Shown one piece after another: positions 2,646 to 21,810 of a stretch of 64,000 nt of DNA; position 1 is the first letter of the stretch; each line of letters begins with the position of its first letter. This stretch comes from a bacterium (lineage in GTDB: Bacteria > Auribacterota > UBA3054 > JAPLST01), in assembly GCA_026417575.1 (NCBI GenBank), contig JAOACZ010000128.1:5127-69126 (forward strand). The letters run 5' to 3'. The position numbers and the translations under genes are program-made. The notes below the pieces were generated by a model. The model worked only from the letters and a program-made list of their open reading frames with translations. It was not told the origin of the DNA and ran no database searches.

Positions 2646-3569
2646 ATGCCAACGCCCGCTCACGAAAATCCGCTCCACACCGCAGTTCGCCAGTTCGTCC
2701 TTCATCTTCAGCTCGAACGTGGGTTGGCGCGCAACACCTGCCTGGCTTACGAAAACGATGTGCGGCTCTTCGGCGCGTTTCTGGCCCGGCATGGTATCAA
2801 TGCCTGGCACGAGGTCACACCTGCACATATTACTGACTTTCTCACCGAGCGCCATGCTCTCCGGCGTAGCGTGAATACTGTTTTGCGCGAGTTAATTGCC
2901 TTGCGCGTGTTCTTCCGATATCTGGTGCAAGAGAGAACGGTTCAGGAGGACGTGACCGCACGCGTGGAAGCACCTAAAGTGTGGCGTCTATTGCCAGAGG
3001 TGCTGAGCGAAGGGGAGATGCAACAGCTTCTGACAGCGCCGGATGAGCGCACGTGGCGTGGAGCGCGAGACAAAGCCATGCTTGAGTTGTTGTACGCGAC
3101 GGGTCTGCGGGTGAGTGAACTTGTGACCCTACGACTAGGTGACGTGGATTTGGAGAGCGGATTCTTGCGGTGTCGCGGGAAAGGCGGAAAAGAGCGTGTG
3201 GTTCCGATTGGCGCGCCGGCACGTGCGGCGCTGCGAGCTTACCTGTCATGGCGCGGATCGGGAGCGGGAGCCGAACCCCTTTTTTGTACCTCACGGCATA
3301 CAGCCATGACGCGTGTGAACTTTTGGAAACGCATTACTCAGTATGCAAAAAGGGCTGGGATTCTCAAGGCCGCGCATCCACACATCGTGCGCCATTCCTT
3401 TGCCACGCACTTACTTATGCATGGCGCTGACTTACGCGTGGTACAGGAGCTTCTCGGGCACGCAAACATCACGACCACGCAACGATACACGCACGTGGAC
3501 CATCAACGTTTACGCGCTGTGCATCGCCAATTCCATCCCCGTGCGCGCTTGCCGCGCGGTGAGGTATGA
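2646..3569 (+). CDS. xerD: Tyrosine site-specific recombinase XerD
   Basis: 307 aa. Contains RDKAMLELLYATGLRVSELV, HIVRHSFATHLL, LLGHANITTTQRYTH and ends HPRA, close to the E. coli XerD motifs as I recall them. Confidence 0.8.
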   Translation: MPTPAHENPLHTAVRQFVLHLQLERGLARNTCLAYENDVRLFGAFLARHGINAWHEVTPAHITDFLTERHALRRSVNTVLRELIALRVFFRYLVQERTVQEDVTARVEAPKVWRLLPEVLSEGEMQQLLTAPDERTWRGARDKAMLELLYATGLRVSELVTLRLGDVDLESGFLRCRGKGGKERVVPIGAPARAALRAYLSWRGSGAGAEPLFCTSRHTAMTRVNFWKRITQYAKRAGILKAAHPHIVRHSFATHLLMHGADLRVVQELLGHANITTTQRYTHVDHQRLRAVHRQFHPRARLPRGEV

Positions 3570-8800: not shown

Positions 8801-9130
8801 CACGCGGAAAGGCTCATACACCTCGCCCGCGCTCCAAATGAACGTGCGGAACCCTTCCACACTCACACGCTGGTACGCTGTGTTGGCCGGATGATATGCC
8901 AAAATCGCTCCGTCTTTGTCGCGTGTCCCACAACTAGTAATCGCCTGACCGCGATTGCAATAGAAGACCCACATGGGAATGCCGTGCTCGCCTGCAATGC
9001 CGGGAAGGAAACTGGCAAATGGCCGTGCCTGGTGGTAGTTGTGTTGGACAAATGTGCCGTCCTGAAGCAGCGCCGAGTGGAACGTCGTCGCACCGGGTTT
9101 CATGGAGAAGAGAATAATCGCTGTGAACAA
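5867..9130 (-). CDS. Large (alpha/alpha)6-barrel glycoside hydrolase/phosphorylase-like protein (GH94/cellobiose-phosphorylase-like)
   Basis: Intact 1087-aa ORF with no signal peptide. The RPGWNDALNGLPG motif resembles the GDWND catalytic region of GH94 enzymes, and GYWSDHWVYCLDLLENY is also present. Family assignment is from memory only. Confidence 0.4.
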   Translation of the reverse strand: MFTAIILFSMKPGATTFHSALLQDGTFVQHNYHQARPFASFLPGIAGEHGIPMWVFYCNRGQAITSCGTRDKDGAILAYHPANTAYQRVSVEGFRTFIWSAGEVYEPFRVGAKGARQTLWVRAHELEIEDDNPSLGWRVHVLYFTLPQMPWGALVRWVTLTNTSRRARLVRIADGVARFVPGSVCVADYVHMSNTEAGVIETLTPAPGVLVSRARVIHYDTVTPDFNTTFNYLTTVVTGAGQPQVQMIGDPREIFDEGGDLHMPQAWVARDGRVRRGALRSRGFMPCAFACFARNLPAGSSCTWFSCVGNVAAPRDVTRLRTLLAKPDWLAKKRDENARLIAQIEDRMWTVTSQPTFDYYCRQTYLDNVLRGGLPVSLGRQIFHLYFRKHGDMERDYNWFALEPAYYSQGNANYRDINQNRRADVLFHPPVELTNVRTFFNALQLDGNNPLVYLGTAFALPIDLPTRALPAQLRTLATKFAGALTTPGELARAALQEKLPPPQVLATLLAHARRVDRFGGSDGYWSDHWVYCLDLLENYLAVYPDHAAAALFKDCSYTYHDNPEIMLPRDTRFTLDEARGVVRQHNALTRDPEKAALIAARRDDPTCVRTEHGKGVVYRTTLSEKILSVVAVKMALLDPEELGLEMRGNRPGWNDALNGLPGLIGSSINETAELLRLVRFLHAHLPAHGGISCCVELAELVRDLRASWDASATALARWHARNDALERYLTDTRLGVDGATTTITMDELQETLAMWETVLQSAIRRARDERTGLYHGYFFYNVTQYRVLPGPDGAPRRHDGHPCVWPESFTRVTLPPFLEPQVRVMYVLEGPAAARALHRAVLRSPLYDRTLRMFVLNAPLARITQEIGRANIFPPGWLENQSVWMHMEYKYFFALLRAGLYEQFFAVARDALVPYQPPQRYGRSPLEHASFIASSAHEDRRIHGTGFYARLSGATVEFISMWLELSGAARIFSLDAQGALRARFQPILPAELFTRRAVTRTWESLEGRQTVTIPAHACAFVILGGTLLVYHNPQRRATFGPRAVTPATYHVRMRDGSTCTVAGPWLPTELALRLRTGEVARVDVELR

Positions 9131-9199
9131 CGCCTTTTGGTTACATGACGCTTGGGCTGCGCTGCCAACGTGCGTGTGGGTGACGCAGCGAAATAGCTA

Positions 9200-9228
9200 A
9201 GTATAGTCCTTCCTGTCGTACAAGTCAA
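9200..9228 (-). promoter_or_regulatory. sigma70-type promoter of the 1087-aa gene
   Basis: Minus strand reads TTGACT-17 nt-TATACT, 69 nt upstream of the start at 9130. Confidence 0.5.
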
Positions 9229-9373
9229 AAGGAGCGCGAACCACTAGGTCGGGCACGGTTGATTTCGCCACCGCAGCGACGGAAGTGATACAGCGCCACG
9301 AACATAAGCCCGCCGGGCCGGCATTCTCTCACAGGTGCAATACGTAAAAGCAGCCGTCACTGTGCGCAGTCAT

Positions 9374-9402
9374 TTGACGAAGTGCGATGAGTGTGATATA
9401 CT
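9374..9402 (+). promoter_or_regulatory. sigma70-type promoter of the MBL/photolyase pair
   Basis: TTGACG (9374-9379), 17-nt spacer, TATACT (9397-9402), 41 nt upstream of the ATG at 9444. Confidence 0.5.
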
Positions 9403-9443
9403 AGACTGGACAGTTACCATACTTACCCCACGAGTGTCCGACG

Positions 9444-10172
9444 ATGGATCGTTTCTTTTGGCTCGCTCCATGTGCTCTGCTTCCCTTTAGTGCCAACGCC
9501 GCAGCACCCTTCCCCAGCGATGACATCACCACATCAGTAGGTGTGGTGCGCATTTCGTTCCTGGGGCACGGCACCCTCATGCTCACGCATGGTCAAACGG
9601 TCATCCACGTGGATCCGTTTGGGCAGGTGGCTGATTACGCGTCGTTGCCCAAAGCCGATCTTATTCTCATTACACACGAACATTTCGACCATCTCGATCT
9701 GGCCGCAATCAAGAAAATTCGTACCGACAAAACGGCCATCATTGCTCCACCCATCTGTGCGAGCAGCCTGCCTGAAGCAATCCTGCTGCGCAACGGCGAG
9801 CACACCACCAAAGCCGGTATTGTCATCCACGCCGTGCCGGCGTACAACATCAAGCATGAACGTGCGCCTGGCAAACCGTTCCACCCACGCGGCGTGGGGA
9901 ACGGCTACATCCTCACCTTTGGTGACACTCGTCTTTACATCGCCGGTGATACGGAAAACACACCCGAAATGAAAGCTCTGACCAACATCACGGTCGCTTT
10001 TCTCCCAATGAACTTACCCTACACGATGACACCCGAAATGGTTGCCGACGCGGCGCGGGCATTCAAGCCAAAAATTCTCTATCCATATCATTACGGCGAT
10101 ACAGATCCAACACGGCTGACAAAGCTGCTGAAAGACACGGGCATTGAGGTGCGGATTCGCCCGATGCGATGA
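9444..10172 (+). CDS. MBL-fold metallo-hydrolase with signal peptide
   Basis: 242 aa. N-terminal signal-like MDRFFWLAPCALLPFSANAAAP and the HxHxDH motif HEHFDHLD. Confidence 0.8.
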   Translation: MDRFFWLAPCALLPFSANAAAPFPSDDITTSVGVVRISFLGHGTLMLTHGQTVIHVDPFGQVADYASLPKADLILITHEHFDHLDLAAIKKIRTDKTAIIAPPICASSLPEAILLRNGEHTTKAGIVIHAVPAYNIKHERAPGKPFHPRGVGNGYILTFGDTRLYIAGDTENTPEMKALTNITVAFLPMNLPYTMTPEMVADAARAFKPKILYPYHYGDTDPTRLTKLLKDTGIEVRIRPMR

Positions 10173-11650
10173 GCAGCGCCACGGTCATTTTTCCGCACCA
10201 GTTGTTCGCAGACCATCCCGGGTTAGATCGTGGGCGGCGCATCGTTCTGGTTGAAGATCAGCTCTTCTTTCGTGATTGGCGGTACCCCGCGCGGTTTCAC
10301 AAGCACAAGTTGATCCTCCATCGCGCGAGTATGCGCGCCTACGCCACCCTGCTGCGCCAGCGTGGCTACGATGTCAGCTACCTTGAGTATGCGCCGGACC
10401 GCGAAATGTCCTATTTGTTTGCGCCTTTGCGCCGCGCAGGTGTGACTGAGATAGTCGTCGCGGAGGTGTGTGACTTCATGTTGGAAAAACGCGTGCGCCG
10501 CTACGCTAGGCAACACGGCATACGCATTACCGAGCTGTCGTCCCCTGGGTTTCTCACCCCACGTGATTGGCTGCTCAACCGACTACAAGGCAAGCAGCGC
10601 CTCAGCCTGACATCTTTCTACATTGCTCAGCGCAAACGTATGGGCATCTTGTTGGATAACGGCAAGCCACGCGGCGGCCGCTGGACGTATGACACCGCGA
10701 ATCGCCAACCGCTGCCCAAGAACCTTCCTGTTCCCCCACTTCCAACTATCTCGCCCTGCCCAGAGGTACGCGCGGCGATAGCCTACGTCACTCAGCACTG
10801 GCCTGACCACCCGGGTGAACCGTCGGCATTTTGGCTTCCGATCACACACGCAGCTGCAGCACAATGGCTCCAGCACTTTCTAGAACACCGTGTGATGCTG
10901 TTCGGCCCTTACCAAGACGCCATGCGTCGGGAGGAGCCTTTCCTCTTTCACTCAGTTCTCTCACCTCTGCTCAACATCGGCTTACTCACGCCCACCCAAG
11001 TGCTCGAGGCCGTGATAGCCGCCGCGCGTGAAAAGGATGTACCCCTTCCATCATTGGAGGGCTTCATCCGTCAGTTGATAGGTTGGCGTGAATTCGTCCG
11101 CGGCGTTTATCTTTTGCACGGCGTACGCCAGCGCACCAGTAATCACTGTGCTTCCACGCGGCCTATGCCAAGCGCGTTCTATCACGGAACTACGGGCCTC
11201 CTGCCCTTTGACACTGTCGTCGCGCGCGTGCAACGCCTGGCCTATTCTCATCACATTGAACGACTTATGATATTGGGGAACCTCATGCTGCTCTGTGGCA
11301 TTCATCCTGACGCAGTTTATACCTGGTTTATGGAGCTGTTCCTGGATGCCTACGATTGGGTCATGGTCCCAAACGTGTACGGCATGAGCCAGTATGCCGA
11401 TGGTGGCTTAATGACCACAAAACCCTACGTGTGCAGTTCACGCTATATCCGCAGGATGAGTGATTATCCTCGCGGTGCCTGGTGTGAAGTGTGGGATGCG
11501 CTCTACTGGCAGTTTATTGATCGGCAGCGCGCCACCCTGGAGGGCAGCCCGCGCACCGCAGTGATGCCGCGCATGTACGATCGGTTTACACCTTCGCGCC
11601 GAGCCGAGCTTGCACGCAAAGCAGAACAATTTCTCGCGCAGCTTACGTAA
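10169..11650 (+). CDS. Cryptochrome/photolyase-family protein, FeS-BCP/(6-4) photolyase PhrB-like (COG3046 type)
   Basis: 493 aa. N-terminus MSSATVIFPHQLF...HKHKLILHRASMRAY is typical of photolyase-related COG3046. The C-terminal Cys pattern TKPYVCSSRYIRRMSDYPRGAWC matches the Fe-S cluster region as I recall it. ATGA overlap with the MBL gene. Confidence 0.7.
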   Translation: MSSATVIFPHQLFADHPGLDRGRRIVLVEDQLFFRDWRYPARFHKHKLILHRASMRAYATLLRQRGYDVSYLEYAPDREMSYLFAPLRRAGVTEIVVAEVCDFMLEKRVRRYARQHGIRITELSSPGFLTPRDWLLNRLQGKQRLSLTSFYIAQRKRMGILLDNGKPRGGRWTYDTANRQPLPKNLPVPPLPTISPCPEVRAAIAYVTQHWPDHPGEPSAFWLPITHAAAAQWLQHFLEHRVMLFGPYQDAMRREEPFLFHSVLSPLLNIGLLTPTQVLEAVIAAAREKDVPLPSLEGFIRQLIGWREFVRGVYLLHGVRQRTSNHCASTRPMPSAFYHGTTGLLPFDTVVARVQRLAYSHHIERLMILGNLMLLCGIHPDAVYTWFMELFLDAYDWVMVPNVYGMSQYADGGLMTTKPYVCSSRYIRRMSDYPRGAWCEVWDALYWQFIDRQRATLEGSPRTAVMPRMYDRFTPSRRAELARKAEQFLAQLT

Positions 11651-12107
11651 CTTTTCCAACACTTCAGTCGGTTTTCGGCCAGAAGCACGCACCGCATGAC
11701 CTCTGCGCGGTTCGCTACGGCACAAAGTGTGGTGTCCCGCACTTTGACAGAGCTGACGCCGTGCTGCTAGGAATAAGAGTGTGTGTCGCACATCACATTA
11801 GGATAAGAATGTTCCTCCGACACTCAGAGGTTTTGGCACCGCTGATCCGTGTTGATCACGAGCGTGGGGTACACATGCTGCGTATTTACCCTGACAGTCC
11901 CCGGTGCCTCTTTTCGGCAGGCACACATACCCTCACTTATTCTCGGACCGCGCATCAGACGCAGAACTGGAGTGTGTCTGTTTTGGCCCGCAGCAGACGC
12001 AGGGGGTTCCAGATACCGCTACCGGGTAGTGTAGGAACGCAGTCCGAGGGCTGTGAAGCCCTGGAGGCTGCAACCTGTTGATGATGCTCTAACGCCAAAG
12101 CACTGAT

Positions 12108-13028
12108 TCACGCGCGGGTCTGCGCGCGCATAGGCGCGACAGCAAAGCCATTCGGAAACTCCTCTGAGAGTTGGTATTCGGCGACCCGTTCACAGAATTT
12201 CAAGTACTCAATACCGTCCTTCGCTGCCGTGTCGGCATCGGGGATCATGGGCGCGCTTTCAATCGTGCAGTAGCCTGTGTAGTTGATTTTTTTTAAGGCG
12301 CGCATGACGGCCTTGAAATCCACTGTGCCATACCCCGGGGTCAGTGAGTTCGAGTCGCGGAAGTGTACATGCCAGAGCAGATCGCCCGCGTCCATCACAG
12401 CTTCGTAAGGATTGAGCTCTTCAAAGTTAGCGTGAAACCAGTCAAGTTGGATGCCGATATTGTCACATCCGGTGGCACGGATCATGCGGCGGTGGTTCAT
12501 GGCGGTGTTGACATATTTGCCCATCTCCAAATGGTTGGTGGCCTCAAAGACGAGGCGCACGCCGCAGGTGCGCGCGTACTCGGCCATGCGGCGCAAGGCA
12601 TCCACCGCGATGGCGGTACACGCGGCCACATTGTCCGCAGTGATGTCGGCATGAATGGCCGCGGCGACCGTGACCAGGGGCGCACCCACTTCGGCGGCAA
12701 AATCAATCGAGGTTTTTGTTTCCGCCACCGCCAACTCGGCCGTTCGTGGTTCCGTGAGCGTTTTGAAGGTTGGCGAATAGGGATCCCACATCGCGCCCCA
12801 GCATTCATTAATGCAAGAGATCTCCATGCCGAATTCCTGTTTGAGCGCGCGGTGGGTGCGGGCATAGGCCGCCATGCTGACGCCCATCCCATAGCGTCCT
12901 TTCGGCGGCGTGAGTTCGATGGCATCATAGCCGAATTTCTTCAGGCGCTGATACGTCCGTTCCGGATGCAGGTAGGTTTCTTCCTGCCCGAAAGTCAACT
13001 GAAAATAGGAGTATTTGAAGGGCGGCAT
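12108..13028 (-). CDS. Sugar phosphate isomerase/epimerase (xylose isomerase-like TIM barrel)
   Basis: Start revised to MPPFKYSYFQLTFG... (ATG at 13028), preceded by AAGGAG. The 375-aa version in the track would overlap the upstream gene. Contains ...FGYDAIELTPP..., ...WHVHFRDSN.... Confidence 0.8.
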   Translation of the reverse strand: MPPFKYSYFQLTFGQEETYLHPERTYQRLKKFGYDAIELTPPKGRYGMGVSMAAYARTHRALKQEFGMEISCINECWGAMWDPYSPTFKTLTEPRTAELAVAETKTSIDFAAEVGAPLVTVAAAIHADITADNVAACTAIAVDALRRMAEYARTCGVRLVFEATNHLEMGKYVNTAMNHRRMIRATGCDNIGIQLDWFHANFEELNPYEAVMDAGDLLWHVHFRDSNSLTPGYGTVDFKAVMRALKKINYTGYCTIESAPMIPDADTAAKDGIEYLKFCERVAEYQLSEEFPNGFAVAPMRAQTRA

Positions 13029-13050
13029 AGGTGGCTCCTTATGCGGGCGC

Positions 13051-14463
13051 TTAGTTGTGACGAAACACTTCCCATCCCAGATACTTCTCGGCCGCTTCCG
13101 CCAGGGCTTTTGCCACATGGCCACGCACCATGGCGACGTGATGCTCGAAGCCGTTTTGGCACAGCATGTCCAGCAGCTCCTGCAGGCGTTCCACATAGCA
13201 GACTGCCACGCCACCCACCGTGTCGGTGGGATCATTGGTGAATTCGCCTTCGCCGACGTACATTTTGATCACGCCGCGCGTGTCGTCGGTGGAGATTTTC
13301 AGGAAGGTCATTGGGCCGGGCGCTACATTGCCTTTGACGGCGCCAAAGCAGCGGTCCGCACCTAGGGCTGCGCCGAGAATGTCGAGCGTGCCGATCTCGC
13401 GGATGTGGCCGATGAAACTGCGCGGATAGTTTGAACAGTGGATGTTAATACACTTGTTTTCCTCATCATCGTAGTTGTTATTCCAGTCGAGGTAGCCCGG
13501 GGCATTACCTGTGGCCAGGCGCAGCATGTACATAGAGAGCGCGCCCATAACGTCCGTTTCGCAAGCACACGGCGTACCTTTTTCACCGAGCATGCTCATC
13601 GTGAGACAGGCCGCACAGCCGTAATTGTTCTGAATTGAAGCCCAGCATTGCATTGCGGCGGCGTCGCACTCATTGGCGGTGATCCATTGCTCGACAGCAA
13701 GGGAGAGTTTAGCCTGGCGCAGCAGGTGCTCGCTGGGCGTGCCCGGCGCGACCGGCCCGTAGGCCTGAATTTCGGCCACCCGCTGGCGCACAGCGTCGGT
13801 TTCGCCCATTGCCTGCGCCGCCGCAATAATCTCTGACAAATCCACAGCGCACACGTGCACGCCTGAAGCTTCGAGCAGCTTCTCGGAGAAACGCACGGTA
13901 TTAAATGGATCGGGCCGCTGGCCGATCATGCCAATGCGCGCCGTAGAAATACCCTTGACGATGCGGCAGACAGTGGCGAAGTAGTGCAAATCCGCGGTGA
14001 ACTCTTCGCTAGCAATATCGCACGTGTGGCGCGAGGTGTTGGTGATAGCGAAACCGCGCTGGTATAGATTGTTGCACACGGACAGTTTGCCGCAGAAGGC
14101 GTCGCGCCGGCGCGCCATGTCCATCTGAGCGACGCGGTCGGGGCTGGCCTGCACCATGATCGGCACATCCAAGCCGGCACGGGTGATCGTCTCAACCACG
14201 CCCAGTTCATCGCCGAAATTCGGCAAGAGGACAAGAATTCCGTCAATCTCCTCCGCGTGCTCGCGGAACAGCTTAGCGCAGATCTTGGCATCCGCTACTG
14301 TCTCGATGGCTCCGTGCGGTGTTGCATCTTCGGGTGGCAAAATAGCGCCGTAGCCAAGTTGGGCAAGTTTAGCTAGAATGTCCTTGCGCCCTTGCACGGC
14401 CAACGAGGCCGGGAAAAAGCCACGCGTGCCGACAATAACGCCAAATGTTACCCGTGTTTTCAT
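13051..14463 (-). CDS. L-fucose/L-arabinose isomerase family protein
   Basis: Start revised to MKTRVTFGVIVGTRGFF (ATG at 14463, SD AAGGAG). 470 aa. Contains PCACETDVMGALSMYML, typical of the FucI-like family. Confidence 0.75.
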   Translation of the reverse strand: MKTRVTFGVIVGTRGFFPASLAVQGRKDILAKLAQLGYGAILPPEDATPHGAIETVADAKICAKLFREHAEEIDGILVLLPNFGDELGVVETITRAGLDVPIMVQASPDRVAQMDMARRRDAFCGKLSVCNNLYQRGFAITNTSRHTCDIASEEFTADLHYFATVCRIVKGISTARIGMIGQRPDPFNTVRFSEKLLEASGVHVCAVDLSEIIAAAQAMGETDAVRQRVAEIQAYGPVAPGTPSEHLLRQAKLSLAVEQWITANECDAAAMQCWASIQNNYGCAACLTMSMLGEKGTPCACETDVMGALSMYMLRLATGNAPGYLDWNNNYDDEENKCINIHCSNYPRSFIGHIREIGTLDILGAALGADRCFGAVKGNVAPGPMTFLKISTDDTRGVIKMYVGEGEFTNDPTDTVGGVAVCYVERLQELLDMLCQNGFEHHVAMVRGHVAKALAEAAEKYLGWEVFRHN

Positions 14464-14588
14464 GGGAGACTCCTTGAGGGGTGAAAAGGATGGTGGTGGC
14501 CGCTGCACAAAAAAACGTAGGCAAGAAAAGGCGGTGCGCACGCTCGGTGCGGCGCACGGAGAGACGGCGAGAGAGCACTAGCAGCGCG

Positions 14589-14909
14589 TTATTTTGTCGT
14601 ATCCTCATAATCAAACACGAGCACGGATGCGAGCCCATCTTCTAGCGCTGGGATGACAACATCAGTGGCGAACGCGACGTGCGCCGGGTGCGCCAGGTAG
14701 CGTTCGCGCGCCTCAATGCTGTCAAATTCCACGCGGATACCTTCGCGAAAACCCTTGTCCAAGTTTTCCGTGCTGTTGTTGTACACCCAGCGGAAGCTGC
14801 GGATTTCGGGAATAACGGCTTGCAGTGCGGCAAACTCTTCGCGCAGGCGCTGGAGCGTGGCGGAGTCCAGCTCCCTCTTCCACTTGAAAAACGCGTAGTG
14901 GACAATCAT
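14589..14909 (-). CDS. Dabb (stress-responsive alpha/beta barrel) family protein
   Basis: 106 aa: MIVHYAFFKWKRE...YLAHPAHVAF. ATGA overlap with the upstream VOC gene. Confidence 0.75.
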   Translation of the reverse strand: MIVHYAFFKWKRELDSATLQRLREEFAALQAVIPEIRSFRWVYNNSTENLDKGFREGIRVEFDSIEARERYLAHPAHVAFATDVVIPALEDGLASVLVFDYEDTTK

Positions 14910-15430
14910 GATTCCTCCTTGAATGCCGCCTGTTCTGGCGGCGGGAAGATGCGTTCTGGCGGATTGCGGCGTTTCGGGCGCTCAATCAGTTCGAGTGTGG
15001 TGCCGATCAAGTTTTCCGTGTCCAAATAGGCATAGTGGCCGTCATCGTCGGGGCCGAAACCGGCGCCATCTTGCGTCATCACAAGCCCACACGCGCGCGC
15101 TTGTTCGAGCGCGCGCTGCATATCGTTGGTCAGCACGCCGATGTGATGCACGCCGTAGCCGTGTTTTTTAACGAACTCGGCGTACACGGTGTCGCCTTCC
15201 AACGGTTGAATCAACTCAATGCGCATCGCGCCCACGTTGGCCAGCGCCACGCGCATGCGATACTCGGTCGGCTTGCCGTTGCGGGTCATGCGCTTTACCA
15301 GCGGTTTACCGTAGGTGTAAATGTGCCATGGCCCGACGCCGAACCGTTCCCAGTAATTCCGCACGGCCGCATCTAAGTCCGGGACGATGATTGCAATTTG
15401 CGCAATGTTATCCAATGGAAATGTCCTCAT
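14906..15430 (-). CDS. VOC (glyoxalase/dioxygenase-fold) family protein
   Basis: 174 aa. IAIIVPDLDAAVRNYWERFGVGPW, IELIQPLEG and HHIGV are typical VOC/epimerase-like motifs. Confidence 0.7.
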   Translation of the reverse strand: MRTFPLDNIAQIAIIVPDLDAAVRNYWERFGVGPWHIYTYGKPLVKRMTRNGKPTEYRMRVALANVGAMRIELIQPLEGDTVYAEFVKKHGYGVHHIGVLTNDMQRALEQARACGLVMTQDGAGFGPDDDGHYAYLDTENLIGTTLELIERPKRRNPPERIFPPPEQAAFKEES

Positions 15431-15440
15431 TCCTGACTCC

Positions 15441-16505
15441 TCACGCGCGGCAAGAGCGCTCTACGTGATTGGTGAACACCACTTTCAGCGCGCGGCCTTC
15501 CGTGGCTTCCTTGACGCCGTCGGCAAAGGCGCTGAGTGGAAAACGGTGGGTGACGAGTTTGTCGCCGGGGATGCGGCCGCTGGCCAGCAACTGCAAGGCG
15601 CGCCCGTGATGGCGCGGAGCAAAGATCGTCGTGCCCATCACGTGCAGGGCGTTATAGTGGATCAGGTTGGTATTGAGGCCGGGGCGGCAGCGGTCGGCCG
15701 GCAAGCCGCCGAAGAGCAGTACCCGGCCGCCTTTGCGGGCGATTTCCAGCGCCTGCACTTGCGATTCAGGCGCGGGGTTGGCTGTGATCACGACGTCGGC
15801 GCCACGCCCGCCCGTGATCCGGCGCACCTCTTCAACAAGATCTACCTGCGCTATGTTTATCATGTGGTCAGGATGGAACTGTGTGCACAATTGCAGCCGC
15901 TCCGCAGACACGTCGGCGATAATCACAGTAGTTGCGCCGCGTGCGCGCGCCAACAACAGGTGAAGGCAGCCGACGGGCCCGGCGCCCAGCACCGCCACCG
16001 TGTCGCCCAACCCGACGCTGCCCGTCTCCTGCGCGTGAATGCACGACGATAGCGGCTCGGCCACAGTCGCCACCACCGGGTCGAGCCCGGCAGGAATGCG
16101 CCGAATCGTCCCGCGGTGCACGGCCTCGGCCGGTATGGCCACATATTCCGCAAAACCGCCTGGCCACACTTGCGCAATCTCACGGTAGCCGCTGCACAGC
16201 TCGAACCGTCCTTCCACGCAAAACTCACACACGCCACAATACACAAGCGGCGCAACGGAGAGCAGCTCGCCGCGCTGCCACGGCCCGCTGTACTGCGCGC
16301 CTGTTTCCACTACCACACCGCTAATCTCCTGCCCCACGACAAACGGCAGGGTAACTCGGTGATGGCCGTGACGCAACGTGCGCAAATCGCCGCCACACAG
16401 CCCGCACGCCAGGACCTGCAGCAACAGACCGCCAGCCGGGCAGGCGGGCGTTTCCAGTTCCACCAGCCCGTACTCACCAGGCGCGCGAATCAGAATTGCT
16501 TTCAT
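15441..16505 (-). CDS. Zinc-dependent alcohol/polyol dehydrogenase (MDR family)
   Basis: Start revised to [12 protein letters not shown] (ATG at 16505, ATGA overlap with the upstream stop). Contains [22 protein letters not shown] and GAGPVG. Confidence 0.85.
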
Positions 16506-17794
16506 GCGGGGTGCAACCATTTGTCCTGCTGACGGCGTAATTCAGCGATGAATGTATCTGTGCGTGCCATAAAATTCGCGGTGGTCATCGGCTGGCCTGC
16601 TGGAATATCAGCCGTGGCCCTGCCGCCCGGGGCAAGTCCGATGGGAATCATGCCGCCTAAACGTGCCTCAGCATACGTGTAAATGCGCCCGTAAATGTCG
16701 GCGCTGCCAATACCGCCCACTTGCTCACCTGCGCGAATCGGCCGCTTCGCCACGCACACCACTTCCGCGTGCATTGTCTGCGCCGCCACGGTCACTTCCT
16801 TCAACAGCACCGCCTCGGCGATGGATTGCGGCGTTTCAATGTCGCACAAGTGATACGGGCGGAAGAGCAGATAGTACGGCCCGCGCGCCTTCGTAATGAA
16901 CTCCATGTCCTTGCGCATGCGCGGGCTGTCGGTGTAGACGATGGCAAATACCCCGGGCGCGATGGCGCCAGTCGTGAAGTCCACGCAGCCGCGCCGCGAG
17001 AAGATGCCGCCGTCAGCTTTGGGGATGAATGTGGTCACCAGTTCATCTAATTCAGCCTTCGGGCCGTGCATGCCCGGCACGTCAGGCAACAGCCCGGTGG
17101 CGTTGGCAACTGCGGCCATCTCCACCATCGTCTTGGTGCCGTCTTTGAATGCTGCCAGCATTTTGGGATTCATGTCTTTGGCTGCGGCTTCTGCGGCACA
17201 ACGCTCAGGCGTAGCAGCGAAATCGATCGGATTGTTCTTGCCCTTGCCCAGACAAATCACTTCAAACCCCATCAGCACGGCTTGTTCGTACAGCATGGTA
17301 CACACACCCGGCTCGTCGCCCGAGGCGCCTGTGTACACCGCGCCGCGCGTGCGCGCCAAGTGGCTCAGGTACGCACCCACGGTGACATCCGTCTCAGCAT
17401 TGAGCATGATGATGGGTTTACCGTAATGAATAGATTCGTAGGCCACGCGCGCGCCGATGTCCGGCACGCCTGTGGCTTCCACATTGGCTTCAAGAGCTTC
17501 TAGGCGCGTCAGCAACAACGCGTCGGCCGTCACCAGCCGTTTACCCTGTCGCAGCGCGTCCTGCGCTTCGTTTTCGTTGTCAGTGACAACGATTTCGTCG
17601 CGCGGACACCCCAGCTCGCACAGCGTGTCTATGCCGCGCTGCGGCGCAATGTCGGCAATCGCGGCCACACGCATGCCTTCAACGCGCGCGACTACGTGCG
17701 CCAGCCCCGAACCCATCTGCCCGCAGCCTACAATGCCTACCCGTATCGGATCGTTCTGCCCAGCGCGTGCCCGCAACTTCCGTATCAACTCCAT
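16502..17794 (-). CDS. NAD(P)-binding oxidoreductase with C-terminal SAF domain (COG4091, homoserine-dehydrogenase-like)
   Basis: Start revised to [12 protein letters not shown]...[14 protein letters not shown] (ATG at 17794, SD GAGGAG). 430 aa. Confidence 0.7.
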
Positions 17795-17804
17795 GCTACG
17801 CTCC

Positions 17805-19361
17805 TCATATTGAACGTGCCCGCAACCGGGCCAGTTCACGGTAATCCTCTTTGACGTGCTCGTACAACCGCTTGTACAACGCAAAATATTCTTGATACCG
17901 GGCATGCGCCGCCGCATCCGGCTCAAGTGGTTCGACTAGCTCCACCCATTCTTTCGTCACTGAGAAATCCTTAAACACGCCCGTAGCAACACCGGCCAGG
18001 ATGGCATCGCCGTAGGGCGCGCCAACGCGGCTCTTTACCAGCACCGTGGGCACGTTAAACACATCAGTGATGATGCGGCGCCACAGCGCGCTCTTCGCCC
18101 CACCTTCATTCAACACAATCGGTCCACGAATTTGTTGCCCCGCCGCCGTGATGATGCGAAACGAATCGTACAGCGCGTACGCCACGGCCTCCATGGCAGC
18201 GCGCGCCACGTGCCCGCGGGTGTGGTTGAGCGACAGGCCGAAGATCACGGCGCGCGCGTGCACGTCCCAGATGGGTGTGCGCTCGCCCATCAAGAATGGT
18301 AGCATCACCAGCCCGCCGGCGCCGGCCGGCACGGCCGCCGCTTCACGGTTGATCAGCTCATACGTGTCCGTGCCGGTGGTGCGCTCTGCCGCCTTTTCGG
18401 CTAGGTAGAAATTGTCACGCAGGTAGCGCAGAAGCTGCCCGCCAGTCGTAGTCGTCGGTATGGTAACGAACACGGGCTGCTCCACCGTATCGGTCGTGTA
18501 ATTGCACGCAATCATACTGTCATGGAACGTCGGCGCGGTGTGAATAATGCCGAAATTGCCGCACGTGCCAAGATTCATTTGAATGTCACCATCCGCAATG
18601 GCGCCGGCGCCGCTCCAGCCAGCGTTGCAGTCCACCTGGCCGGCGGCCACTGGCGTTCCCGGCGCCAAACCAGTAGCTTCCGCGGCTGCGGCCGTTACTT
18701 CGCCCACCACGGCCGTACACGGATACAGGTCCGGAAACAATTCACGCGGGATGCCCACAGCGTCCAGCATAGGTTGGTTGAAGGTACGACCCAACAAATC
18801 ATACGCCACGCCGTAGAATGCCGCGCCGGAGTAATGCCCCGTGGCCACACCGGTTAGTTTCAGCGTAATGAAGCCGTCAATCGTCAACGCCTTCCACACA
18901 CGGCGAAACTGATCCGGGCGATTATCTCGCTCCCACATCAAGTTGATGATCGAGGGGTGGTCGTCGAGGCGGTTTTTGGTGACCGCGAATACGCGCGCTT
19001 CGCCCAGCAGATCTTTTACAGCCTGCACCTGGCGTGTGGCGCGGCGGTCCATCAGATTGTAGGCATTGCCAATCGGATTGTGCGCGCGGTCCACCATCAC
19101 CAGCGATGGCAGCGCGGACGACACAGCAACGCCACCAATTTCCCGGGCGGGGACACGCGCCTCGGCCAGCACCTGGCGGATCATGCGGCAGGCGGCGTCC
19201 CAGTAGCGTGCTGGCTCATGCTCCGACCAGCCTGGATGTGGTGTGAGAATAGGAAACTCTTCAAACGCGTAGGCACGCGTGCGGCCTTCACAGTCAATCA
19301 GCGCCGCTTTCGCGCCGCCGGTGCCATAGTCCAAGCCGAGTAGGTAGGGTCGCATTGTCAT
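17805..19361 (-). CDS. FGGY-family carbohydrate kinase (xylulokinase-like)
   Basis: 518 aa with N-terminal [16 protein letters not shown] and overall FGGY architecture. Confidence 0.85.
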
Positions 19362-19379
19362 TGTGTGTCACCGTGGTAT

Positions 19380-19409
19380 TTCCAGGTTCACGGGAGCCTC
19401 TCCCTGGAA
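19380..19409 (-). promoter_or_regulatory. Dyad symmetry in the 5' leader of the sugar operon (operator or RNA hairpin)
   Basis: TTCCAGG (19380-19386) and CCTGGAA (19403-19409) form a perfect 7-bp inverted repeat between the -10 box and the start codon. A competing inner GGGAG/CTCCC hairpin lies at 19392-19404. Confidence 0.4.
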
Positions 19410-19416
19410 GTAGCCC

Positions 19417-19445
19417 ATTTTACAAAATACATCGTAGAATTTCAA
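19417..19445 (-). promoter_or_regulatory. sigma70-type promoter of the seven-gene sugar operon
   Basis: Minus strand reads TTGAAA-17 nt-TAAAAT, about 55 nt upstream of the FGGY start. Confidence 0.55.
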
Positions 19446-19974
19446 GTAGATCTTGCATCCAAAAAAAACGCGCAACGTCCCTACGGCGTGTCACCCATTA
19501 TCGACAGCAGCGCATAGGTCGAATGAGAAAAAGCACAGCGATGGGTATAACCTGACTGGCCGAAACGATCCGTAACGCAGCTGTATGTGTCGTTACGCGG
19601 GACTGATAATGGAGTAAGGATAAGGACAGTAAAAATCCTGCTAACACGTCCCTCCTGTCAGGGGCCTGGTACCATAGGCACGCAAAAGACCGTGCGACTG
19701 CATCGGGGTGCGCAACGTAAAAAGTTTAGCATGTGCTGCTCATTGTGTTCAGCAAGGGCGTAAAGAAACTGCTGCTACCGACCTCACAGGCAGCGCTCTA
19801 CAGCTATCAGGGGCTTTTACCGCTCCTACGGTACGTCATCGCCACACCAATTAGGCGCGGCAAAACAGTCCCGGTGGTCACGCCCCGGATTACCGCACTC
19901 GGCGCAGTTGATGCAGAGCGCTGAGTGTTTTTTCGCACAGTGTTTGCAATGGCCGCAACGTTCTGGATGAGCGG

Positions 19975-21810
19975 CTAGTCTGCTTTTGCTGGCTCCAAGC
20001 GTGCGGGGCTCAACTTGTAGAGGGGAACATGCGCTTTAGCAGTCTGCATGCTCTTTCGGCATACTGCGTGTCTCCGTTGGAACGTGCGCATGAGCAGAAG
20101 GCAAACGCCACAGAGGAGCACGTGACCCGGCTCGGGGATATCGCCCACAAACACAGCGCTCATCGGCCCCCAGTTGCCCAGAGCGTCTTGACCGCGCACA
20201 TATACCAGCGCCTCCGGTCCGCCCAACATCGTGCTGTCCACATAGCCCACGACAGGTTCATAGACTGAGTCAAATGCTCCATCGGCGGCACTCATGGGAA
20301 TTGGCACCACCTGGGGATGAGTGAATGGAAGCAAAGCGCACTCTGCAGCGGCGACGAGATTGCTTCCCGTGCCGCGCTCGTCAATCACGGCCGAAACAAC
20401 AACCATGTTGCTCGGCGTCGGGACGAGTTCGAGCGCCAGCGCATCAGGCCCGGCAACTAACATGTATGGCGCGCGGGCGATCTTCGCAGCATAGATGAGA
20501 GCGCCGCGATTGGTCGGCCACTGGTCAGCATCAATGGCACTGTATGCCGGCATGAACGAAGTGCCCACTTCGAAGGTAAAGGCTGGAATACCGAGCTCGC
20601 CGTAGGCCCAATCCGTGCTATCACCGCTGGTCGAGTAAAGCGACGTACTGCTTTGACCAGCGCGGTAGCGATTGTAGCGTGCGAACTTTAATCCGATGGC
20701 GCGGAGCTCATTTGCATTCGGCGCTGGCGCGGCTGTGTCGCCCCACGGCCACAGGACGTAACGGCCGTAACTATGCAGCGAGATCAATAACCCGGTGGTG
20801 TTACTCGGGGCAGGGTCAGTGAGCAAAGGACCGCGCTGATCGGGAATCAGATTAGTTACCAACGCTTGCAGGGCGGCCACTTCCGGCTCTGACGCAGGGG
20901 CTGTTCCGCAGTAGACAAGACTACACGGAGCGGTGCTAATGCCGACGGTGCCCCAATGAAATGAGTGGTTGCGATTAAGGTCAATCCCATACTGGGCCCA
21001 GTCATCGGGTGGCCATGCGCTACAGCGATCCTGATGGGCATTTTTACGCTGCATGAAGGGCGGGCCATTAAAAGGCGGCAGCGTGCCGAGCGAGACGAGC
21101 CAATGTGCTTCGGGATTAACTAGTGGCACAATCCATGTTTCTTGTTCGTTGACAAGCCACGTGGCGTCTGGATCGTGTCCGTAGCCTTCAAGGAGCCAGT
21201 GCGCGAAGCGGATGGCCAATTCGGGCGTGGTAATTTCACGGGCATGAATTGCGGCCATCAGGAAGAAAACGGGCTTGGGGCCCGGCGTGTTGGTGGCGGT
21301 GATGCACAGGGCAAGCAGGTCATGCAACTCTTGTGTTTGCCCGCCTGGCGTTACGGTGCCACCTACTGACTTACAGTAGGCGTCGCCGTAATCAACGAGC
21401 CGAGCTAGGTGAGGGTAGGCAGCTGTCAGCGCGTTCAGGTGAGCGACAATCTCCTGCGCGGTTTTGTAGGCACCGTAAAACTCCTGCGGTGCGAAGCCCG
21501 CCGGCCGGCGCATAAAACGCGCCTGCGGGTGGGTTAGCTCGGCACTGCGTTCAGCGTCAATGCTCACACGCCATCCTTCGGCTTCCAGTTGAGCCAGCGT
21601 GCGGGGAGAGGCCGTGACGAGGACGTATCCCTCCTCGCGATCATTGAATTCATGCACATCGTAGCGTGCCACCAGGTCCTGCAACGCCGCCTCGGTCGGA
21701 TAATAGACGCGCGCCACGTAGAGCGGGGGCAGCTGTACGAGTTCTTGCTGCGCTGCAGCGACGAAGACGTTCAGGAGTAGGGCATAACCGAGGGCAAGGG
21801 AACACCTCAT
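19975..21810 (-). CDS. Secreted M14-family zinc carboxypeptidase with PEP-CTERM-like C-terminal anchor
   Basis: 611 aa. Signal peptide MRCSLALGYALLLNVFVAAAQQ, zinc motif AAIHAREITTPE, and near the C-terminus IPEPGHVLLCGVCLLLMRTFQRR followed by 31 further residues. Confidence 0.8.
   Translation of the reverse strand: MRCSLALGYALLLNVFVAAAQQELVQLPPLYVARVYYPTEAALQDLVARYDVHEFNDREEGYVLVTASPRTLAQLEAEGWRVSIDAERSAELTHPQARFMRRPAGFAPQEFYGAYKTAQEIVAHLNALTAAYPHLARLVDYGDAYCKSVGGTVTPGGQTQELHDLLALCITATNTPGPKPVFFLMAAIHAREITTPELAIRFAHWLLEGYGHDPDATWLVNEQETWIVPLVNPEAHWLVSLGTLPPFNGPPFMQRKNAHQDRCSAWPPDDWAQYGIDLNRNHSFHWGTVGISTAPCSLVYCGTAPASEPEVAALQALVTNLIPDQRGPLLTDPAPSNTTGLLISLHSYGRYVLWPWGDTAAPAPNANELRAIGLKFARYNRYRAGQSSTSLYSTSGDSTDWAYGELGIPAFTFEVGTSFMPAYSAIDADQWPTNRGALIYAAKIARAPYMLVAGPDALALELVPTPSNMVVVSAVIDERGTGSNLVAAAECALLPFTHPQVVPIPMSAADGAFDSVYEPVVGYVDSTMLGGPEALVYVRGQDALGNWGPMSAVFVGDIPEPGHVLLCGVCLLLMRTFQRRHAVCRKSMQTAKAHVPLYKLSPARLEPAKAD

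Follow-up and report, generated by a model that had tools for sequence, protein, structure and literature searches.

The seven-gene operon on the minus strand of the window (the whole 64,000-nucleotide stretch of DNA analysed here) is real and widely conserved, and we put at about even the chance that it is a D-apiose catabolic cassette, which would share the first step with the known non-oxidative apiose pathway and then diverge through a DRL enzyme. Judged from the sequences, the route is likely new and built on a relative of the isoprenoid-synthesis enzyme DXR-II/DRL. The features of the operon, from the promoter candidate to the last gene, are:

19417-19445, minus strand: sigma-70-like promoter candidate, TTGAAA-17 nt-TAAAAT (consensus match only)
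17805-19361, minus strand: FGGY kinase K, 518 aa, xylulokinase-like (Pfam FGGY_N 152 bits, FGGY_C 91 bits)
16502-17794, minus strand: DRL_cat/SAF oxidoreductase D, 430 aa (Pfam DRL_cat 209 bits)
15441-16505, minus strand: Zn-dependent medium-chain dehydrogenase Z, 354 aa (Pfam ADH_N + ADH_zinc_N)
14906-15430, minus strand: VOC/glyoxalase-fold protein V, 174 aa (Pfam Glyoxalase_4 73 bits)
14589-14909, minus strand: Dabb (dimeric alpha/beta barrel) protein B, 106 aa (Pfam Dabb 68 bits)
14464-14588, minus strand: 125-nt intergenic gap between B and F, containing a GC hairpin and a U-rich stretch as well as the ribosome-binding site (AAGGAG) of F
13051-14463, minus strand: FucI-family isomerase F, 470 aa (Pfam Fucose_iso_C 104 bits)
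12108-13028, minus strand: xylose-isomerase-like TIM barrel T, 306 aa (Pfam AP_endonuc_2 129 bits)

All seven open reading frames are on the minus strand in the order given by the first-pass annotation, each family backed by Pfam, and direct reading of the sequence shows both reported ATGA overlaps (16502-16505 and 14906-14909), through which Z is translationally coupled to D and B to V. The junctions measure, from K to T, 10, -4, 10, -4, 125 and 22 nt; the gaps of about 10-45 nt described outside the overlaps are found at three junctions (10, 10 and 22 nt) but not between the Dabb and FucI-like genes. This 125-nt gap makes a single transcription unit less certain than was first claimed, and it is a possible sub-operon boundary. 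Its fold is not significantly more stable than those of shuffled sequences (z = -1.2), and an Rfam search of the gap returned no match. F starts at the ATG at 14463, preceded by the Shine-Dalgarno sequence AAGGAG; an upstream GTG start would shrink the gap to 47 nt, but this GTG is without support. The promoter-like site is present where it had been placed (19445-19417), 55 nt 5' of the kinase start codon; it matches the consensus at 10 of 12 positions and ranks first among six sigma-70-like sites in the region, compared to 3.3 expected from shuffles. The operon is flanked by unrelated genes (photolyase-related, metallo-beta-lactamase fold, M14 peptidase and UvrD).

Comparison of gene neighbourhoods identified the cassette kinase-DRL-ZnDH-VOC(-FucI-TIM) in 83 further loci from about eight phyla. 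The Dabb protein is present in 2 of the 84 loci (this operon and locus L032) and is a sporadic accessory, not a conserved member of the cassette. Of 49 well-flanked loci, 48 have D together with Z or the Z paralogue Z'; K occurs in 80% of the well-flanked orthologous loci (58-80% identity), V in 78% of loci (58-83% identity), F in 76% and T in 24%. The gene families and the conserved cassette agree with the initial description of a tightly coupled sugar or polyol catabolic set. As also stated initially, the operon has neither a transporter nor a regulator beside it within the window; this is not the case for the orthologous clusters, which contain SorC regulators (61%) and ABC transporters (57%), the latter of the ribose type. 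At the phycisphaeral locus L002, which has only K-D-Z, the adjoining ABC system with DUF2291 is 35-45% identical to the apiose transporter of E. coli and Rahnella. No recurrent aldolase was found in the cassette neighbourhoods, and transketolase genes are present in only 4 loci; L019, L066, L067 and L071 have AptAB-like split transketolases close to the cassette, and AptAB-like genes are absent from the window and from 95% of the loci.

The upper step of the pathway, which had been left wholly unassigned, is assignable from F. Its placement in the FucI family stands, but the first-pass annotation missed the subfamily: by sequence, F falls within the subfamily of ApsI, the D-apiose isomerase, whose genes occupy the apsI position in known D-apiose clusters. 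Across four canonical apiose clusters, the full-length identity of F to the resident FucI-family gene is 44-46%; it is 44% (466 aa, E = 1e-142) for the copy that sits between aptB and aplK in Rahnella and Sodalis and 46% for the copy of the Chondrinema apiose cluster. The plasmid homologues that come next do not exceed 27% identity. The SBP-DUF2291-ABC system, AptAB and a GlpK-like kinase are all present in the Rahnella, Sodalis and Chondrinema clusters, with a SorC regulator additionally in the first two; in the fourth, an 11.6-kb Klebsiella record, only an AplK-like kinase is adjacent. The same FucI-family gene is exactly the one missing from the apiose cluster of E. coli, which is growth-validated and reported without apsI (PMC13001218).

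The non-oxidative D-apiose pathway ApsI-AplK-AptAB was reportedly described by Carter et al. 2018; it corresponds to MetaCyc PWY-8089, with clusters in Pectobacterium, Rahnella, Sodalis, Chondrinema and E. coli ST131. The operon resembles it in F, in the presence of an FGGY kinase and, at orthologous loci, in the SorC-type regulator and the ribose-type ABC system with DUF2291. However, the lower pathway differs: neither an AptAB transketolase nor a RuBisCO-like protein is present in the operon, K resembles XylB and shares only 22-23% identity with the GlpK-like AplK of E. coli and Rahnella, and the cassette has the DRL enzyme, the Zn-dehydrogenase and the VOC protein instead. The earlier remark that the genes fit no described pathway agrees with the searchable literature, which yielded no match, and no published description of the apiose route proposed here was found in the literature searched (Carter et al. 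2018 lying outside that search).

D had been called a SAF-domain NAD(P) oxidoreductase, which holds for the family but misses a full-length homology to the reductoisomerase DXR-II/DRL (E = 2.6e-95, 323 bits, residues 3-427, against the Brucella DRL structures 3UPL and 3UPY). Seven residues (K191, K193, D167, E168, E232, G121 and R320) are invariant among the 85 members of the D clade, T229 is kept in 84 and H250 in 81; the roles of the DXR-II residues, including the fosmidomycin/phosphate anchors K191, K193 and T229, have been described (PMC3847144), and we take D167, E168 and E232 to be metal ligands. D belongs to a separate clade (mean identity 61%) that is about 40% identical to Brucella DRL and shares 73 identically conserved columns with the DXR-II group, with only three clean class-specific changes (A31C, T36S and V329T). 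The conservation of the DXR-II anchors and acidic residues indicates that D should act on a phosphorylated C5 compound closely resembling MEP or DXP. With no recurrent aldolase and few transketolases, D is also the sole conserved candidate for the obligatory carbon-skeleton step. Brucella abortus DXR-II shares with D the DRL_cat + SAF architecture and the catalytic and phosphate-anchoring residues, but is an alternative DXP reductoisomerase of the MEP pathway, whereas the context of D is catabolic and D is proposed to act oxidatively, from branched to linear, on a hydroxymethyl analogue. A paralogue, D', which groups with the Brucella and Rhizobium DXR-II, often occurs at the same locus as D.

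From sequence and gene context we infer the substrates of each enzyme, the order of the steps and the direction of D. F would convert D-apiose to the achiral ketose apulose; apulose (or apiose directly) would be reduced to apiitol by Z, the proposed apulose/apiose reductase; and K, the proposed kinase for apiitol or a related C5 compound, would phosphorylate the C1 hydroxyl. The product, apiitol 1-phosphate, would be 2-C-hydroxymethyl-tetritol 4-phosphate, the hydroxylated analogue of methylerythritol 4-phosphate (MEP). D, as the proposed branched polyol-phosphate oxidoisomerase, would then run the DXR reaction in reverse, oxidizing a branch CH2OH to an aldehyde with NAD(P)+ and converting the product by a ketol (retro-aldol/aldol) rearrangement to a linear pentulose 5-phosphate, ideally D-xylulose 5-phosphate, that would enter the pentose phosphate pathway. 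Z followed by D would be redox-neutral, and an aldolase, a transketolase or a RuBisCO-like enzyme would be unnecessary. The model fits the earlier suggestion that a rare sugar is converted to a phosphorylated ketose, and a protein with a KdsD/GutQ-like pentose-5-phosphate isomerase domain, present in 22% of the loci, fits C5 phosphate intermediates.

Two known systems bear on these steps. In the apiose cluster of E. coli ST131/ST1193, two SDR oxidoreductases replace ApsI (PMC13001218), which implies an apiose-apiitol-apulose redox shuttle and makes apiitol a plausible natural intermediate; this cluster shares its transporter and regulator types with the cassette loci, but uses SDR instead of Zn-MDR enzymes and AplK + AptAB in the lower pathway. 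ApnO (EC 1.1.1.421), the D-apionate oxidoisomerase of the oxidative apiose pathways, resembles the proposed D in combining NAD+-dependent oxidation with migration of a carbon substituent that linearizes the apiose skeleton (PMC12994016). The substrate of ApnO, however, is an acid sugar without phosphate, and the enzymes that act after it, a DUF1537 kinase and RuBisCO-like enzymes, are all absent here. DLO-type distant relatives of D adjoin OtnK-type kinases, which is only a hint with respect to the ApnO likeness.

The remaining enzymes are less specifically assigned. K scores 292 bits against NCBIfam XylB, under the cut-off of 380, and all NCBIfam equivalogs of Z are under their cut-offs (Tdh 180/458, IolM 164/450). 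T is a putative ketose-3-epimerase or IolO-like protein (IolO 118 bits vs. a cut-off of 300; best PDB matches D-tagatose 3-epimerase and TM0416, about 73 bits). IolM and IolO of the Thermotoga maritima inositol pathway are best or near-best NCBIfam matches of Z and T, but these scores are far under the cut-offs, IolG and IolN are absent here, and the cassette context points to apiose. V, the nearest solved structure of which is 3GM5 (of unknown function), is a candidate enediolate-type isomerase or epimerase; the VOC, TIM-barrel and Dabb proteins may be isomerase, epimerase or mutarotase helpers.

Apiose as the substrate is supported by GH140 genes (Pfam 263 bits) inside or beside the cassette in 18 of the 83 orthologous loci (Kiritimatiellia, Planctomycetota, Bacteroidota, Spirochaetota, Chloroflexota and Bacillota); to our knowledge, apiosidase is the sole characterised activity of this family. 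Among the 20 GH140 genes, 18 have the same orientation as the nearest core gene, 11 are within 300 bp of a core gene and 7 are inside the cassette, as in Anaerobaca lacustris (K-GH140-D-Z-V, gaps of 13 nt and 23 nt). Several observations count against the apiose model. The window contains no GH140 gene, and no transporter or regulator; V is as conserved as the kinase but has no necessary role; and a second paralogous set, Z'-D'(-K'), present in about 31% of loci, is left without explanation. Because the DXR equilibrium lies on the side of the branched alcohol, the reverse direction would need a downstream pull. D-apiitol 1-phosphate belongs to the L-series of the MEP analogue, and the stereochemistry would work only if apulose reduction sets the configuration or extra epimerases act.

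An unlikely alternative is a role of the cassette in salvaging or catabolising 2-C-methyl-D-erythritol or 1-deoxy-D-xylulose, with K making MEP or DXP and D being a genuine DXR-II, with DXP going to acetyl-CoA and glyceraldehyde 3-phosphate or to isoprenoid, thiamine or PLP synthesis. D has an active site that hardly differs from that of validated DXR-II, K is xylulokinase-like, and E. coli XylB phosphorylates deoxyxylulose. Furthermore, acetoin-dehydrogenase-like E1/E2(/E3) genes, which suit a methyl ketone (DXP) better than xylulose 5-phosphate and hence count against the apiose model, lie inside or directly beside the cassette in five loci (L006, L019 and L066-L068), with E2-like genes nearby in two others, and the same complex accompanies 40-44% identical homologues in Rhizobium and Priestia, along with a kinase, a SorC regulator and a transporter. 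However, E1/E2 genes are found at only about 8% of the loci, the polyol would need only the kinase and D, leaving over the near-universal Zn-dehydrogenase, the ApsI-subfamily isomerase and the GH140 apiosidases, and D' is a better candidate for MEP/DXP chemistry.

Slightly less probable is apiose catabolism in which D is a plain polyol- or ketose-phosphate dehydrogenase without rearrangement and C-C cleavage is encoded elsewhere, for example by a housekeeping transketolase with apulose 4-phosphate as its substrate. K might be an apulose kinase of non-orthologous origin, the few AptAB-like split transketolases would fit, and the DLO-type relatives appear to be ordinary acid-sugar dehydrogenases; these, however, have lost K193, T229 and H250, whereas D keeps every such DXR-II signature residue. 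Apulose 4-phosphate, with its phosphate one carbon nearer the carbonyl than in DXP or MEP, would fit the site of D poorly, and most loci have no AptAB-like genes. It is distinctly improbable that the substrate is hamamelose (2-C-hydroxymethyl-D-ribose), aceric acid or a linear rare pentitol, with the apiose links secondary: hamamelose 5-phosphate has an aldehyde on the tertiary carbon, on which a DXR-type isomerisation could be direct, T resembles ketohexose 3-epimerases, and RG-II releases aceric acid too, but T is infrequent, GH140 points to apiose, and the four closest plasmid relatives of F are in or beside ApsI-AplK-AptAB genes (the Klebsiella member only next to a kinase). That D is a housekeeping DXR placed among sugar genes by chance is extremely improbable, even though DXR-II replaces DXR-I in some bacteria (PMC3847144), given its ATGA overlap with Z, its position 10 nt after the kinase, the persistence of this arrangement across about eight phyla with SorC regulators, transporters and glycosidases, and the low likelihood that an essential gene would be under sugar-inducible control. 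If the proposed apiose route is correct, a relative of DXR-II/DRL, known only from isoprenoid synthesis, would act in sugar breakdown.

Seven minus-strand open reading frames lie within positions 12108-19445 of the window, and their Pfam families are those named in the first-pass annotation. The features are as follows, with the gene letters used below.

Operon features (genes by Pfam family; promoter by consensus match only)
19445-19417, minus strand: sigma-70-like promoter candidate, TTGAAA-17-TAAAAT
17805-19361, minus strand: FGGY kinase (K)
16502-17794, minus strand: DRL_cat protein with a weak SAF oxidoreductase match (D)
15441-16505, minus strand: Zn-dependent dehydrogenase (Z)
14906-15430, minus strand: VOC/Glyoxalase_4 protein (V)
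14589-14909, minus strand: Dabb protein (B)
13051-14463, minus strand: Fucose_iso_C protein (F)
12108-13028, minus strand: xylose-isomerase-like TIM barrel (T)

The promoter proposed in that annotation outscores the other sigma-70-like sites in the region and stands as a candidate, and both ATGA overlaps were found where it had placed them. The successive junctions (10, -4, 10, -4, 125 and 22 nt) bear out the tight coupling it described, except that the B-F gap exceeds the 10-45 nt it gave for the non-overlapping junctions. Ribosome-binding sites (GAGGAG or AAGGAG) precede D, V, B, F and T. A GC hairpin and a U-rich run lie in the 125-nt gap, whose fold was not significantly better than that of shuffled sequences (z = -1.2), so we claim no terminator or attenuator; an Rfam scan of 11600-20100 gave no match. 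The operon is flanked by unrelated genes (a photolyase-related protein, a metallo-beta-lactamase fold, an M14 carboxypeptidase and UvrD), the remaining genes of the window are housekeeping genes, and the operon has no transporter, regulator or glycosidase gene next to it there.

Several other features of the window were recorded. The 613 bp between the M14 peptidase gene and the K start (19362-19974) contain no convincing open reading frame and no Rfam match, and the promoter-like site and 5' UTR account for only the last ~85 bp. An XerC/D-like tyrosine recombinase/integrase (2646-3569, plus strand) lies ~9 kb past the operon end, adjoining a MalK-like ABC ATPase (352-1536); nothing was found in the window that would place the operon on a mobile element, and GC content is uniform. 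Three long minus-strand open reading frames (5867-9130, 28772-30157 and 40525-41958, encoding 1087, 461 and 477 aa) had no Pfam match at E ≤ 1e-3 to 1e-4. Plus-strand GC skew is persistently and strongly positive from 22000 to 56000 (0.13-0.41 per 2-kb bin) and near zero or negative before 22 kb and after 60 kb. Exact-sequence look-ups of the window proteins matched no record.

The first-pass label of D, 'SAF-domain oxidoreductase', missed its identity as a homologue of DXR-II/DRL, the alternative DXP reductoisomerase of Brucella. D scores 208.8 bits against DRL_cat (PF21135; cut-off 27) and is ~40% identical to Brucella abortus DRL (PDB 3UPL/3UPY; E = 2.6e-95, 323 bits), with residues 3-427 aligned full-length to chain residues 10-436 of 3UPL. 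A seven-residue signature (K191, K193, T229, H250, G121, R320 and V351) distinguishes DXR-II from its uncharacterised relatives DLO1/DLO2, with K191, K193 and T229 anchoring fosmidomycin and the substrate (Carretero-Paulet et al., PMC3847144). Among the 85 members of the D clade (the window protein and 84 others), K191, K193, G121 and R320 are invariant, as are D167, E168 and E232, which we take to be metal ligands; T229 is present in 84 of the 85 and H250 in 81, and position 351 does not retain Val, being His in the window protein. The DLO-type controls L087 and L088 (L-numbers denote comparison loci) lack K193, T229 and H250. Between the D clade and the group formed by Brucella, Rhizobium and D' (a second paralogue, described below), 73 alignment columns are identically conserved and only three clean class-specific changes were found (A31C, T36S and V329T). 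Retention of the signature residues and of these columns argues that D should act on a phosphorylated C5 compound closely resembling MEP or DXP. In a neighbour-joining tree without bootstrap, which does not include all of the validated Chloroflexus and Listeria DXR-II sequences, D stands in a clade of its own, D' falls with the Brucella and Rhizobium sequences, and the Priestia sequence branches beside the D clade. The closest relative of the window protein is from a Kiritimatiellia bacterium (81% identity), and the 64-kb window contains no dxr.

In a pattern scan covering a single genome from each species, at least 505 relatives of D were identified. Identity is 55-68% for the best 80 loci, which are spread over Planctomycetota, Bacteroidota, Spirochaetota, Chloroflexota, Bacillota, Verrucomicrobiota, KSB1 and Calditrichota; D also has thousands of close metagenomic homologues. 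Searches with the seven window proteins (tblastn) showed that K, D, Z and V recur in this order, with F and T frequently next in line, across these eight phyla at 50-83% identity, which answers the question, raised in the first-pass annotation, of whether the gene set is conserved as a unit. We calculated the frequencies of the elements from the 49 loci that had at least 6 kb on both sides.

Frequency of elements among the 49 loci
Z or its paralogue Z': 98%
K: 80%
V: 78%
F: 76%
SorC-type regulator: 61%
Ribose-type solute-binding protein: 57%
GH140: 29%
T: 24%
KdsD/GutQ-like SIS isomerase: 22%
Dabb: 2%

The earlier statement that the operon has no transporter or regulator holds for the window but not for the loci elsewhere, where the SorC-type regulator and the solute-binding protein are common, so their absence is a peculiarity of this genome. 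The Dabb gene is a sporadic passenger. In its smallest version, in a complete Phycisphaerales genome, the cassette consists of K-D-Z divergent from genes for a solute-binding protein, DUF2291, ATPase and permease, and this transporter is 35-45% identical to the apiose transporter of E. coli and Rahnella, with the same four-gene architecture. Overall, the cassette is very probably conserved as a catabolic unit that acts on a branched C5 sugar. A single-domain SIS protein of ~205 aa adjoins the cassette in 18 loci (for example L061 12386-13000, L053, L056 and L065); it scores 125 bits against the KdsD arabinose-5-phosphate isomerase model and lacks the CBS domains. DUF6786 proteins (10 loci) and DUF4432 proteins (5 loci) also recur near the cassette.

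The first-pass annotation, in calling F FucI-like, did not recognise its relation to apiose clusters. The FucI-family gene that Rahnella aquatilis and Sodalis praecaptivus have between their aptB and aplK genes shares 44% identity with F over 466 residues (E = 1e-142), and its counterpart in Chondrinema litorale shares 46%; the Chondrinema cluster comprises the F-like gene, AptA, AptB, a solute-binding protein, DUF2291, an ABC component and a GlpK-like kinase. In the plasmid collection the identities are bimodal, with four matches at 44-46% (ApsI-type clusters) and the rest at or below 27%; the genes of Rahnella, Sodalis, Klebsiella and Chondrinema match at 44-46% across at least 94% of the length. 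A PDB sequence search with F returned no FucI or AraA match at E < 1e-3. The growth-validated apiose cluster of E. coli ST131 is reported to be without apsI, the gene for the D-apiose isomerase (PMC13001218), and in our comparison this cluster (L089) contains all other components and misses only the FucI-family gene, which by subtraction identifies the latter as ApsI. By sequence, F is a member of the ApsI subfamily, the name apsI itself depending on that subtraction.

D-apiose is a signature sugar of rhamnogalacturonan-II and of seagrass and duckweed apiogalacturonans, and apiosidase is to our knowledge the only characterised activity of GH140. Of 83 loci, 18, distributed over six phyla, carry GH140 genes (Pfam Apiosidase, up to 263 bits). 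Of the 20 genes, 18 are co-oriented with the nearest core gene, 11 are within 300 bp of it and 7 are located within the cassette itself. One example is Anaerobaca lacustris, whose locus reads ABC transporter, SorC, K, GH140, D, Z, V, gaps of 13 nt and 23 nt separating GH140 from its neighbours. On the combined evidence of GH140, an isomerase of the ApsI subfamily and a transporter and regulator of the apiose type, D-apiose is by far the best-supported substrate, and we consider it the likely one. The solute-binding proteins of the clusters show only remote likeness to solved ribose-type binding proteins, and for this reason we dropped inference of their ligand.

Four apiose pathways are said to have been described by Carter et al. 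in 2018, and we know of no others. Papers from 2025-2026 likewise give the Carter et al. set as the only known bacterial apiose enzymes. The known non-oxidative pathway (ApsI-AplK-AptAB) differs from the present operon in its lower steps, since the apulose kinase AplK and the split transketolase AptAB are missing here: AptA and AptB queries from E. coli and Rahnella (tblastn) had no match in the 64-kb window, and AptAB-like split transketolases occur only in L019, L066, L067 and L071. K is not an AplK orthologue (identity 22.5% with the E. coli enzyme and 23.5% with that of Rahnella), AplK being GlpK-like (495 bits) and K XylB-like (292 bits). The oxidative pathways (ApsD-ApnL-ApnO-OiaK-RLP/OiaC) differ in their DUF1537 kinase, RuBisCO-like protein and lactonase; no such domain was found in the seven proteins or the flanking genes, and none of these, nor an aldolase, is recurrent among the neighbours of the orthologous loci. 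The literature that we searched on apiose and DXR-II contains no description of the present route, the known pathways being taken from secondary accounts. The upper step is known, and a lower pathway on a DXR-II-like enzyme appears to be undescribed.

Entry of apiose into central metabolism requires C-C cleavage or a skeletal rearrangement, for which D would be the only conserved candidate, as judged from the repertoire of its family. In the route that we propose, F would convert apiose to achiral apulose, and Z would reduce apulose to one apiitol enantiomer, or would reduce apiose itself; interconversion of ketoses and polyols is typical of Zn-MDR polyol dehydrogenases. K would phosphorylate C1 to give apiitol 1-phosphate, in constitution a 2-C-hydroxymethyl-tetritol 4-phosphate, i.e., MEP with CH2OH in place of CH3. 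Working opposite to the DXR direction, D would oxidise the branch hydroxymethyl group to an aldehyde and then, by a ketol (retro-aldol/aldol) rearrangement, form CH2OH-CO-CHOH-CHOH-CH2OP, a pentulose 5-phosphate and the hydroxy analogue of DXP. Because the reduced nicotinamide cofactor used by Z would be regenerated by D, the sequence would be redox-neutral. As to stereochemistry, D-apiitol 1-phosphate maps to the L-series; the achiral apulose stage would let Z set the configuration for D-xylulose 5-phosphate, and otherwise epimerases would be needed, a role that V, T or the SIS protein might fill. Two oxidoreductases have been proposed in place of ApsI in E. coli ST131 (PMC13001218), which independently suggests an apiitol intermediate. 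The full step-by-step model is tentative, and we rate its chances slightly short of even.

Several observations fall outside this model. V is conserved like K, yet has no necessary role in it. A second module, Z'-D'(-K'), stands beside K-D-Z-V in ~31% of the loci (e.g., L031 7417-11271, L008 7958-11886 and L043 13155-15496), with Z' and D' ~40% identical to Z and D and K' 25-29% identical to K, and the co-occurrence of two DRL enzymes is likewise outside the model. Acetoin-dehydrogenase-like E1/E2(/E3) genes lie inside or directly beside the cassette in L006, L019 and L066-L068, and E2-like genes are nearby in two further loci; L006 (12898-18044), L019 (4499-8292) and L066 (11335-14780) have a fused E1alpha-beta gene and E2, with E3 too in L006. 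With V, the Z'-D' module and the E1/E2 loci left unexplained, three rival explanations are kept alive. Metabolism of methylerythritol or deoxyxylulose draws on the E1/E2(/E3) complex, which is not predicted by the apiose model and would fit a methyl ketone (DXP) better than xylulose 5-phosphate; the apiosidase genes and the ApsI-subfamily isomerase favour apiose. Another branched sugar as the substrate has these same apiose-type genes against it. Finally, D could be a simple dehydrogenase, a reading that has against it the signature residues kept by D and lost by the DLO-type controls. A Thermotoga-type inositol pathway was rejected, the scores against the NCBIfam equivalog cut-offs being 164 vs. 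450 for IolM and 118 vs. 300 for IolO. K belongs to the FGGY family and scores 291.9 bits against the XylB equivalog TIGR01312, below the cut-off of 380.25; PDB sequence searches with K, Z, V and Dabb returned only uncharacterised or generic relatives.

DXR-II-type genes were also observed in other catabolic settings. On plasmids of Priestia aryabhattai (L085, 1-12212) and Rhizobium sp. N324 (L086, 1892-15137), genes 40-44% identical to D are accompanied by SorC, a transporter, an FGGY or PfkB sugar kinase and all of E1alpha, E1beta, E2 and E3 of an acetoin/pyruvate-dehydrogenase-like complex; this gene content suggests that methylerythritol is catabolised through MEP and DXP, giving acetyl-CoA and glyceraldehyde 3-phosphate. 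In Listeria monocytogenes (L090, ~6793-11566) and on a Ligilactobacillus salivarius plasmid (L091, 8001-15572), DXR-II genes that keep all signature residues are in operons with a glucitol/sorbitol-type PTS (IIA, IIC, IIB), GutM and a SorC-type regulator, followed in Ligilactobacillus by fsa and tkt. Distant DLO-type relatives (24-26% identical and annotated 'FlgA' or 'SAF domain') in Rhizobium bangladeshense (L092, 2828-8344) and Alloyangia pacifica (L093, 6950-13450) have TCT transporters alongside, with PdxA in the former and OtnK (DUF1537 kinase) and a class II aldolase in the latter; these proteins resemble acid-sugar dehydrogenases, with a possible relation to ApnO, and their annotation as 'flagellar biosynthesis protein FlgA' is almost certainly wrong.

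In the 2013-2026 literature that we searched, DXR-II appears only as an isoprenoid enzyme, its patchy distribution unexplained. A broader reading, which we put forward as possible but on balance unlikely, is that the DXR-II/DRL family is primarily catabolic, that its isoprenoid role in Brucella and others is a secondary recruitment, and that the clade in the window represents a fifth apiose route. Its members would then be branched-chain polyol-phosphate oxidoisomerases that linearise MEP-like compounds, converting hydroxymethyl-erythritol phosphate (from apiose) to xylulose 5-phosphate and methylerythritol phosphate to DXP. The fifth route would be redox-neutral, cleavage-free and widespread in anaerobic polysaccharide degraders, and a primarily catabolic family would explain the patchy, 'redundant' distribution.

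Known pathways do not account for the way in which Planctomycetota, Kiritimatiellia, Bacteroidota, Spirochaetota, Chloroflexota and many Clostridia would use apiose. If the proposed route is true, three labels in routine use ('homoserine dehydrogenase-like', 'SAF domain protein' and 'FlgA') would need correction, and the findings would bear on the specificity of fosmidomycin-type inhibitors and would provide a natural enzyme, useful in biocatalysis, that interconverts branched and linear C5 phosphates. A short pathway of isomerase, reductase, kinase and oxidoisomerase would then carry apiose carbon straight to the pentose phosphate pathway, and there would be a first physiological rationale for DXR-II-like genes in genomes whose isoprenoid synthesis needs none.
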